Below are positions 6,472-9,767 of a stretch of 24,000 nt of DNA, piece after piece. Position numbers and translations under genes: made by a program. Each line of letters starts with the position of its first letter. Positions within the stretch are counted from its first letter, which is position 1. Source of the stretch: Candidatus Calditenuaceae archaeon HR02 (lineage in GTDB: Archaea; Thermoproteota; Nitrososphaeria_A; Caldarchaeales; Calditenuaceae); contig BEHE01000007.1 in NCBI GenBank assembly GCA_002898395.1, positions 3,631 to 27,630 on the forward strand, given 5' to 3'. The notes beneath the pieces are model-generated. The model was not told the origin of the DNA. It did not search any database and saw only the letters and a list, made by a program, of their open reading frames with translations.

Positions 6472-7026
6472 ATGCTGGGCACAGGATTTGGTGCGATACT
6501 GCTCCTTCTCTACCTCACCTCACCCTTCCTTATCATCTTCACACTACTCATGCTGCTGGCTTTCAGGAGAGGTAGAGGGGTAGTCAGCGTTGGGCTGGGA
6601 GAAAGGAAGGCTCGGGCTATAGAGGTGGCCTGGCTAATAGGTGTAGGCTTGGCTTGGACAGTCATAAACCTGGTCAGCATACCCTGGCTCCCGTGGCTCC
6701 AGCCACTGGCCGCTACAACTGGCCAGTCACCTTCAGAGCCTGCACAGGTCGTCAATGTTGAGGCCTTCATGTGGGGGTATACGCTCGACACCTATGAGGT
6801 CAGGACAGGTGCTGTAAAGTTTGTCTCCACCTCCCGAGACACGATCCACTCACTCACGATCTACTCGCCGCGGGGCGAAGTCCTCGCTACAGTGATGCTG
6901 ATGCCAGGCATGAAGGAGGAGCTGGTCCTAAACCTGTGGGAGCCTGGAGAGTACATCATCAGGTGCCTAGAGTTTTGTGGTGACGGCCACTCAGCAATGC
7001 TCTCAAAGCTCAGGGTGATGGGGTGA
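6472..7026 (+). CDS. heme-copper oxidase superfamily subunit II with a complete CuA site
   Basis: N-terminal TM helices plus a cupredoxin domain. CuA ligands are all present: H126 ... C165-L-E167-F-C169-G-D-G-H173-S-A-M176 (H ... CxExCxxxHxxM). Confidence 0.85.
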   Translation: MLGTGFGAILLLLYLTSPFLIIFTLLMLLAFRRGRGVVSVGLGERKARAIEVAWLIGVGLAWTVINLVSIPWLPWLQPLAATTGQSPSEPAQVVNVEAFMWGYTLDTYEVRTGAVKFVSTSRDTIHSLTIYSPRGEVLATVMLMPGMKEELVLNLWEPGEYIIRCLEFCGDGHSAMLSKLRVMG

Positions 7027-7027
7027 G

Positions 7028-8500
7028 ATGCTCTCGCAAATTAGGCTTGAGGATCTGACGTTCTATCCGAGGCTGATGGTTCTCTCCGCTATTGCCTGGT
7101 TCTTCGCGGGCGGAGTAGCCGGGCTCACAATGGTGGTCGCACACCTTACAGGCGCGCTCAGGGTCCCGGACTACAACATGCTCCTCACATTCCACGGACT
7201 GGTGATGCCTTTCGGCGGCTTATTCCAGCTCATGATGGGTCTCTCACTCCTGAGGGCGGGCTTCTGCTACGGCAAACCTGTGAAAGGGGTTCTAGTAAGA
7301 GCCGCATACATCACCCTCAACTTAGGCCTAATCCTACTGCTCGCAGGCATTTTTGCATTCCAAGTGAGAACGAGCTATACTCTAATGTTCCCACTACCGG
7401 CTGCGGGCGTCTTCAAGGGGCTCTGGCCGCTGGAAGGTCTAATAGTTTTTGTGTGGGGCATCATCTTAATACTAGCCGTTAACATCGCCCTATACCCAGC
7501 GGCGCTTGCGAGGCTGATCTTCGGTGGAAAGACACAAGAAGCCCTCGTGCTGGAGAGATTCGTGGGGACTATCAACCCCTCCGGGATGGCAAGCATGCTC
7601 CCCTACATCTTCATCATCCCCCCTCTCGGCTCCGCAATCACCATAGGTGCACTGACAATAGGTCTCGCGCTACTCGGCATAATACCTCTGAGCTCGGCGG
7701 GCTGGGTATTGCAGCCCTTAAACTTCAACTATCCCTTCTGGATCTGGGCCCACAACCTGATGGAGGCGATGGGCATAATGGCTTTGGGCACCGTCTACTG
7801 GCTCACCCCCCGCTATACAGCCGTGTTGGGAAGTTCTGAGGGTGTGGAGCCGAGGCTTTACAGCGAGAAGCTTGGCATCTTAGCGATTATATTCTATTCC
7901 GCCGCAGCGGTAATGGCCTTCCCACACCACCTATTCACAATGCCTACATCCCAGCCGGTGGGGCTTAGCTACACGGGCCAGGTAGCCAGCTGGCTGACAG
8001 GGTTCGGGGCGGCCTTCTCCGTCTTCAACGTACTCGCAACCGCATACGCCTTCGGCCTGAGGCTCACGCCCGCCTCTCTAGCAGCCATGCTCGGGTTTGC
8101 GGTCTACATAGTCGACGGATTCCTCGCGATGCAGCTGGGGACAATCGGCTGGGCGTACAGGCTTCACGGAACCTACGCAGTAACCGCTCACCTCATGACG
8201 ATACTCCTCGCTGTATCTCTAGTCTGGATAGGCGCACTCTATCACAGCTACAGACTCCTCTTCGGCACTGATGTAAACAGGAGGCTCGCATACATCCATA
8301 TCGTGTTGACAGCTGTGGCGGCGCTAGGCCTGTTTTATTTCATGGCCTTTATGGGAGGTTCTGGAGTCCCTAGAAGGGCCTACCCGCTTCCAATAGCCAG
8401 CGATGCAGGAGTGTTGGGTCTTGTGGGCTTTGGAGCAATTCTAGCAGCGGCCCAGACCATCTTCCTATTCCAGCTCTTTAAATCCCTGAAGGCAACATAG
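7028..8500 (+). CDS. divergent heme-copper oxidase superfamily subunit I (NOR-like active-site signature)
   Basis: The start is 1 nt after the subunit II stop. Helix II reads YNMLLTFH56G, helix VI FWIWAH242NLME246, helix VII FPH300H301LF and helix X LH380GTYAVTAH388LM390. This is about 12 TM helices in 490 aa. Confidence 0.85.
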   Translation: MLSQIRLEDLTFYPRLMVLSAIAWFFAGGVAGLTMVVAHLTGALRVPDYNMLLTFHGLVMPFGGLFQLMMGLSLLRAGFCYGKPVKGVLVRAAYITLNLGLILLLAGIFAFQVRTSYTLMFPLPAAGVFKGLWPLEGLIVFVWGIILILAVNIALYPAALARLIFGGKTQEALVLERFVGTINPSGMASMLPYIFIIPPLGSAITIGALTIGLALLGIIPLSSAGWVLQPLNFNYPFWIWAHNLMEAMGIMALGTVYWLTPRYTAVLGSSEGVEPRLYSEKLGILAIIFYSAAAVMAFPHHLFTMPTSQPVGLSYTGQVASWLTGFGAAFSVFNVLATAYAFGLRLTPASLAAMLGFAVYIVDGFLAMQLGTIGWAYRLHGTYAVTAHLMTILLAVSLVWIGALYHSYRLLFGTDVNRRLAYIHIVLTAVAALGLFYFMAFMGGSGVPRRAYPLPIASDAGVLGLVGFGAILAAAQTIFLFQLFKSLKAT

Positions 8501-8549: not shown

Positions 8550-9767
8550 TCACTCGAGGCTGTGCATCATCCGGAGTGCCATTACTATGCCGCCCAGATA
8601 TAGGGCAGAGATGGCAATTGTTGCGAGTGGTGTGCCAGGCGACCCGGCTAGGAACCAGGAGACCCTTAGCACGTTGCCGGCGTTGAGAAGGGCTGCAGGG
8701 TATAGTGTGAGGCCGGCGTAAGGGATTCTCGCCGACATTAGTCCAGGCATCAGTATTGGCGCGTAGGCGAGGATCATGTTGCCTATAAACCCGATGGCTA
8801 TAGAGTGTATGTATGCGTCCCTGAGAGTGTACCATAGCGGATGCGCCAGCAGCAGGCTGACCGAACTCGACGCAGATAAGAGACACCCTGCTAAAAGCCA
8901 GATTGACGCAACCCTGTACAGCGCCGAGAAGTATAGATACCTGACCCTATCCCTTTCCCTCATCCGCGCGTACTGCTCGCCTGACTTGACCCGTCTGAGG
9001 GCGTCGACAGAAACCACCCAGACAGCCGATGCCAGCAGATACCCTACGGATGCGGCCAGCTCCAGGGACTCGCTGTGAAGGAGTGCCGCTGCCGAGGCCG
9101 CTGCAGAGGATGCTGTGTGTAGTGGGGTGACCAGCCACCAAGCCCTCCTCCTCAGTTTAGTGTCCACCCGGAAGTGGACCGTCCTTATCCCAACACCCAT
9201 TACCATTCCAGCTGGAGCACCTAAGAGGAGTATCAGTAGTAGGCCTGGTCTGCCGAAGGCATGAGCGCTCTCAAGCTCAGCGAAAATTGTTAGGGCTAAG
9301 GAGAGAGGCATAAGTGTCATCGACGCAGATATGAGTGGGTCGGCTGCGGCCAGAGGGCCGGAGGGCCTACCCAGCGCCCATACGGAATAGAAGGCTGCAG
9401 AGGATGTACCTGCTAGAGCAGCTAGATAGCTGAAGAGCCAGGCCACAGTACCTGGCTCCGCAAAAGTGAAAAACCATACACCTACGGTCATGACTATGAG
9501 GGAAAAGACCCTGAGGCCGAGATAACTCGAGGGTTCCACGTTTTTGAAGCGCTGGACAAGAACCATCGCCACAGAGACTATGAAAACGTAGACGAATCCA
9601 AAGATCATTAGTTTGGGGTGTACCAGTGCTGACGGAGTGAAGGGTAGGGCGCCTGAGAGTGAGAGAAGCCACACCGCACCTAGAACAGCCCCTAGAACGC
9701 CGCTAATTGTTGCAAAAGACACCCCAAGTATGAGTACTAGTCGGGCAGACCGGAGTCTCTGCTCCAA
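8550..9767 (-). CDS. NnrS-like polytopic membrane protein (putative heme/copper protein of the NO-response family)
   Basis: About 12 TM helices in 405 aa. VH50PKLMIFGF resembles the NnrS H-x-H-E-M-x-F-G-F motif. IHSIAIGFIGNMILA resembles the second NnrS motif H-x-x-x-x-G-x-x-G-x-M-I-L-A. The predicted start is TTG, with a TATA-like TTTATTTTAA about 30-38 nt upstream. Confidence 0.5.
   Translation of the reverse strand: MEQRLRSARLVLILGVSFATISGVLGAVLGAVWLLSLSGALPFTPSALVHPKLMIFGFVYVFIVSVAMVLVQRFKNVEPSSYLGLRVFSLIVMTVGVWFFTFAEPGTVAWLFSYLAALAGTSSAAFYSVWALGRPSGPLAAADPLISASMTLMPLSLALTIFAELESAHAFGRPGLLLILLLGAPAGMVMGVGIRTVHFRVDTKLRRRAWWLVTPLHTASSAAASAAALLHSESLELAASVGYLLASAVWVVSVDALRRVKSGEQYARMRERDRVRYLYFSALYRVASIWLLAGCLLSASSSVSLLLAHPLWYTLRDAYIHSIAIGFIGNMILAYAPILMPGLMSARIPYAGLTLYPAALLNAGNVLRVSWFLAGSPGTPLATIAISALYLGGIVMALRMMHSLE

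Follow-up and report, generated by a model that had tools for sequence, protein, structure and literature searches.

An invariant methionine at the low-spin haem ligand column of a probable nNOR-type haem-copper oxidoreductase from Candidatus Calditenuaceae archaeon HR02

Among the haem-copper oxidoreductases (HCOs), the family closest to the enzyme considered here is nNOR, which was described by Murali, Hemp, Orphan and Bisk in 2019 (bioRxiv 10.1101/592808) and by Murali et al. in PNAS in 2024 (PMC11214002). According to the later report, nNOR is related to the B family, is close kin to sNOR and carries CuA subunit homologues. Its active-site residues are those of cNOR and qNOR, namely three histidines and a glutamate with no tyrosine, and it possesses a conserved proton channel analogous in location to the K-channel of the B family (PMC11214002). 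Both domains contain members of this rare family, which has been counted in 6 NCBI genomes, 32 GTDB genomes and 289 IMG metagenome hits (PMC11214002). Its low-spin haem has been described as His/Met-ligated, with a potential estimated to be about 150 mV higher (PMC11214002; bioRxiv 10.1101/592808). The function of nNOR was predicted from active-site similarity and context (PMC11214002) and, since no member has been purified, both the ligation and the NO reductase activity are predictions. Another article, PMC11696919, contains nothing on the nNOR enzyme.

Several better characterized enzymes serve for comparison. The NO reductases cNOR (NorCB) and qNOR (NorZ) use an H-x3-E motif and an HH pair as ligands of the non-haem metal and have no tyrosine cofactor, as is also seen at the present locus. 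In P. aeruginosa cNOR the FeB ligands are H207, E211, H258 and H259, and the spacing of four between the histidine and the glutamate equals that between H242 and E246 here. In contrast to the enzyme at this locus, the low-spin haem b of cNOR and qNOR is bis-His-ligated, and a cytochrome c subunit or a quinol site takes the place of CuA; unlike nNOR, these reductases are without a cytoplasmic proton channel. The B-family oxidase ba3 of Thermus thermophilus resembles the present enzyme in its two-subunit core with CuA, in having Ser/Thr where the A-type K-channel has its lysine and in a tyrosine 15 residues past the helix-VI histidine, but differs from it in having an H-x3-Y cross-link and a bis-His haem b. 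In A-type oxidases, the first histidine of the helix-X H-x-H pair binds the high-spin haem, while the low-spin haem is bound by the second histidine of this pair together with a histidine of helix II. Cytochrome b562 and cytochrome bd, the latter in its haem b558 (CydA His186/Met393), are well-known examples of non-covalent His/Met haems, which act there as relay haems of relatively high potential. The folds of these cytochromes are unrelated to that of nNOR, and the analogy is one of coordination chemistry only.

The window analyzed here is a stretch of 24,000 nucleotides of the genome of this hot-spring archaeon of the Caldarchaeales (assembly GCA_002898395.1, contig BEHE01000007.1). Two adjacent open reading frames in it, at 6472-7026 and 7028-8500, are quite likely to code for both core subunits of an HCO of the nNOR type that reduces NO and carries a His/Met-ligated low-spin haem. 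The features discussed below are collected in Table 1.

Table 1. Coordinates of genes and key residues in the window
Feature	Position	Strand	Conservation or other evidence
Subunit I of the probable nNOR-type haem-copper oxidoreductase, 490 aa (P0001)	7028..8500	+	COX1 1.2e-32, AlphaFold2 model, Foldseek, tree
Subunit II, membrane-anchored cupredoxin with complete CuA site, 184 aa (P0002)	6472..7026	+	NCBIfam CoxB 1e-14, Pfam COX2 0.0018
H56 in helix II, predicted axial ligand to the low-spin haem	7193..7195	+	41/41 sequences covering the column
H242-N-L-M-E246, helix VI, first CuB/FeB His and Glu at the cross-linked-Tyr position	7751..7765	+	both 42/42
Y257 (H242+15), candidate residue of a K-channel-like proton path	7796..7798	+	42/42
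H300-H301, helix-VII active-site metal ligand pair	7925..7930	+	42/42
S/T331 and N334, candidates for a K-channel-like proton path with Y257	8018-8029	+	42/42, 40/42
H388 (predicted high-spin haem ligand), L389, M390 (Met at the low-spin column)	8189..8197	+	H388 and M390 each 42/42
R449-R450, Arg pair equivalent to haem-propionate binders	8372..8377	+	42/42
405-aa polytopic membrane protein, convergent with the nNOR genes, weak NnrS resemblance	8550..9767	-	system membership uncertain

The unusual residue lies in helix X of subunit I. The codons CAC CTC ATG at 8189-8197 encode H388-L389-M390, just as the original prediction had read them, and the gene is intact, its reading frame running through without a frameshift or a stop codon. 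The Pfam COX1 domain spans residues 16-454 of the protein (E 1.2e-32). In a phmmer search against all PDB chains, LHGTYAVTAHLM of subunit I pairs with LHDTYYVVAHFH of bovine-type COX1, and this alignment is gap-free over residues 331-395. Because the gap-free stretch covers the helix-X A-H-F-H block, M390 is placed by sequence alignment at the column of the second helix-X histidine, that is, the low-spin ligand column, occupied in the bovine enzyme by H378, a ligand of haem a. H56 pairs with the helix-II ligand position in the alignment to solved oxidases. The arginine pair R449-R450 falls at a position to which we ascribe the haem-propionate role known from A-type oxidases.

Conservation of these residues was assessed in a non-redundant set of 42 family sequences, which come from independent assemblies, span 35-91% identity and include both archaeal and bacterial members. 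M390 is found in all 42, as are H388, H242, E246, H300, H301, H380, R449 and R450; H56 is present in every one of the 41 copies that cover its column, the remaining copy being cut at its N-terminus. Position H+4 of helix VI is a glutamate, tyrosine being absent there throughout the set, and Ala or Ser occupies the place in helix VII, six residues ahead of the HH pair, that cbb3 oxidases use. Every readable HCO match outside the family keeps H-x-H. Together with the methionine in 42 of 42 members, this indicates that the substitution is a fixed trait of the family and not a product of chance, sequencing error or private mutation. The original prediction had allowed that close relatives might carry histidine at this column, and none does.

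The reading in which the methionine stems from faulty sequencing or assembly, or is a private mutation of a gene in decay, retains a negligible probability and is ruled out by the orthologue alignment. The residue recurs in independent assemblies from three phyla, the open reading frame is undamaged and the second paralogue of the same genome likewise reads H-L-M. We found no support for this reading; one Pyrobaculum copy (L044) is frameshifted, yet it too reads A-H-L-M. As separate observations, the L044 copy is broken into several frames and represents either a pseudogene or a poor assembly, and in a same-genus MAG (L034/L023/L028; G034 contig C1) a TAG codon splits nNOR subunit I into pieces of 137 aa and 384 aa, perhaps as a pseudogene, perhaps through misassembly.

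Two other histidines were considered and rejected as substitutes for the axial ligand. The one that had been proposed as H405 is in fact H406, residue 405 being a tyrosine; it is conserved in 37 of the 42 sequences and is separated from M390 by 16 residues, over four turns of helix. H380 corresponds in the alignment to the histidine of the Mg site in A-type oxidases and not to an axial position.

Database searches delimited the family sharply. A word-indexed search of 5.8 billion proteins returned 30 relatives at 40-91% identity, and 1.84 billion cluster representatives, scanned exhaustively with HMMER, yielded only 7 clusters at E<1e-30, after which the next matches fall to about 1e-10. A scan of one genome per species, covering 185,579 species, located 16 loci, and the gene occurs in 10 of the 76 genomes of the source organism's own order. 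The hosts belong to three phyla and comprise Caldarchaeales (Calditenuaceae/Caldarchaeum), Pyrobaculum and Chloroflexota (Thermoflexus, Thermomicrobium and HR28), a distribution that matches the one published for nNOR.

Several features support the assignment to nNOR. First, the active site has three histidines and one glutamate (H242, H300, H301 and E246), and a cross-linked tyrosine is absent both at H+4, where Glu is found, and in helix VII, where the residue is Ala or Ser. Second, methionine replaces the second helix-X histidine at the sequence level. Third, a CuA subunit II homologue accompanies subunit I. In the window, the stop codon of the subunit II gene lies 1 nt ahead of the subunit I start, and the CuA ligands comprise H126 in the motif DTIHS and C165-L-E-F-C-G-D-G-H-S-A-M176 (6964-6999). 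The upstream histidine and the motif C-x-E-x-C-G-x-x-H-x-x-M recur ahead of subunit I in every intact locus inspected. The replacement of Tyr by E246 and of His by M390 sets the enzyme apart from the O2 reductases of the A, B and C families, and M390 and the CuA site on subunit II set it apart from cNOR and qNOR. Y257, S/T331 and N334 would occupy, as judged from their spacing and the phmmer alignment, the positions of ba3 Y248, T312 and T315; in the same alignment S331 falls on bovine K319. We found no difference from nNOR as described by Murali et al., to which this genome adds context only, in the form of two paralogues and their neighbours.

The methionine substitution is already known, as it has been described from sequence since 2019 and is a published hallmark of nNOR. 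The suggestion in the original prediction of a His/Met low-spin haem with a shifted potential agrees with these reports (PMC11214002; bioRxiv 10.1101/592808), in which the ligation is itself predicted, and its remark that the substitution is absent from characterized members holds, no nNOR ever having been purified.

Structural and phylogenetic comparisons were consistent with an HCO that forms its own lineage. An AlphaFold2 model of subunit I, built from a 27-sequence alignment, reached a pLDDT of 87 and a pTM of 0.90; helices II and X were modelled at about 89-97, with helix X (residues 383-406) at 89-96. Foldseek comparison of this model gave a TM-score of 0.83 to A-type COX1 chains versus 0.72 to ba3, a result that supports the HCO fold in the model and has no power to tell families apart; the higher scores of solved A-type chains over ba3 lend no confirmation to the published kinship with the B family. 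A family profile search of PDB chains left ba3, cNOR and qNOR unmatched and returned weak A-type matches only, so that it could not place the family. In a maximum-likelihood tree without named references, the family formed a clade with 100/100 support on a long stem, apart from A-like and B-like sequences. Its nearest outgroup was an H-x3-N sequence that keeps H-x-H, joined with weak support (80/42) and long branches. These data show the key residues and how invariant they are, as well as the fold, the CuA motif and where the family ends.

In the mechanism that we infer, which extends to Met-Fe ligation, haem type, metal identity, NO reduction and proton uptake, electrons would enter at the CuA centre of subunit II and move on to a six-coordinate haem with H56 of helix II and M390 of helix X as its axial ligands. 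From there they would reach a binuclear site, where H388 would ligate the high-spin haem and H242, H300, H301 and E246 would hold a non-haem metal that is probably Fe. Two molecules of NO would be converted to N2O at this site, and the polar path formed by Y257, S/T331 and N334 may bring protons from the cytoplasm. The haem at which electrons enter should have a higher potential with His/Met than with bis-His ligation, the published estimate being about +150 mV. The invariance of H56, R449 and R450 makes absence of the low-spin haem, an option that the original prediction had listed, unlikely and argues that both haems are present.

Ligation by M390 could also be looser than this scheme assumes. 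M390 might be non-ligating, or might ligate in one redox state only, and the "low-spin" haem, being five-coordinate or hemilabile, might then bind NO or O2 and serve as a sensing or second-substrate site and not as a simple electron relay. The ligand has changed in other families as well, with Lys in some eNOR sequences (PMC11214002) and with Glu and Tyr as haem ligands in gNOR and in the J family, respectively (bioRxiv 10.1101/592808). These changes of ligand in other HCO families indicate that the low-spin ligand site is evolutionarily plastic. We nevertheless consider a non-ligating M390 unlikely, as an invariant methionine exactly at the ligand column fits a ligand role, and H56 and the propionate arginines are invariant as well. 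His/Met pairing is, moreover, standard chemistry, as in cytochrome b562, haem b558 of cytochrome bd and class I cytochromes c. A further speculation, very unlikely in our estimation, is that the invariant methionine is hemilabile in a redox- or NO-dependent manner, so that the entry haem doubles as a gate or a second NO site, and that the two paralogues have different roles, e.g., respiration versus detoxification.

The substrate may be considered against the background of the whole genome, which is 93.7% complete and contains four HCO subunit I genes, including the one at 7028-8500. One of the others encodes an A-type oxidase with fused subunits I and III and the motifs GHPEVY and AHFH, and a short CtaA-like gene is also present. 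It is conceivable that the enzyme of the window is not an NO reductase but a CuA-dependent reductase of another substrate that shares the His3+Glu site, acting on O2 in a Tyr-independent manner or on another N- or S-oxide. The function of nNOR has been predicted only from active-site similarity and context (PMC11214002), the hosts are described as aerobes and a full denitrification pathway was not found in the 93.7%-complete genome. However, the Tyr-free His3+Glu site is that of the characterized cNOR and qNOR (PMC11214002), the genome has a NirK-like gene and a canonical A-type oxidase is already there for O2, and we regard a substrate other than NO as distinctly unlikely. For the favoured NO reductase, a role in respiratory denitrification is not obvious, since relatives of the host have been described as aerobic heterotrophs and neither NirS nor NarG was found in this genome at its completeness of 93.7%. 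NO detoxification and micro-oxic NO respiration are both possible, and the NirK-like protein could possibly supply NO in this genome.

Among haem-copper enzymes of solved structure, a His/Met haem at the point of electron entry would have no counterpart. Such ligation is relevant to the repeated evolution of NO reductases from oxygen reductases and to whether NO reduction can conserve energy, a question already raised for nNOR in the literature. While the locus adds no new principle, it is a source of expression candidates in a thermophile genome of moderately small size that carries two nNOR paralogues and a gNOR-like enzyme. Relatives of the host have recently been brought to culture (PMC12979851).

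Further genes of this genome deserve mention. A second nNOR operon (L003:916-3395; G000 contig C30) encodes a CuA subunit II and a subunit I of 67% identity in which both H-x3-E and H-L-M recur. Downstream of it lies a gene for a small cupredoxin of 146 aa that could be the electron donor, and the Caldarchaeum orthologue (L016) likewise has a cupredoxin of similar kind downstream. The gNOR-like HCO (L002:905-3057; G000 contig C3) reads G-L-D-L-I-A-D in helix VI, with Asp at the His and Tyr positions, while HH and H-G-H are retained; in its subunit II, the sequence S-T-E-Y-S-G-P-Q-H-P-W-M has Ser in place of both CuA cysteines. The NirK-like copper nitrite reductase homologue of 495 aa (L007:359-2454, minus strand; G000 contig C12) reaches 164.7 bits against TIGR02376, short of the equivalog cut-off. 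It carries a membrane anchor and, fused at its C-terminus, a plastocyanin-like (cupredoxin) domain, and its gene is followed by one for an SCO1/SenC-like copper chaperone.

The neighbour at 8550-9767 was considered as functional support and set aside as a weak lead. Its product matches Pfam NnrS over the full length at 19.7 bits, under the 28-bit cut-off, and only two of eight homologues match NnrS. H50, H198, H321 and H402 are invariant in its small, unannotated family, which has 10 matches in 5.8 billion proteins, and the synteny is shallow, the gene adjoining nNOR only within the same genus. In two Pyrobaculum MAGs, a hemerythrin-domain gene (PF01814) directly follows the nNOR genes (L015:8493-9032 and L044:~7407-7990); this domain occurs also in NO-stress iron-sulfur repair proteins.
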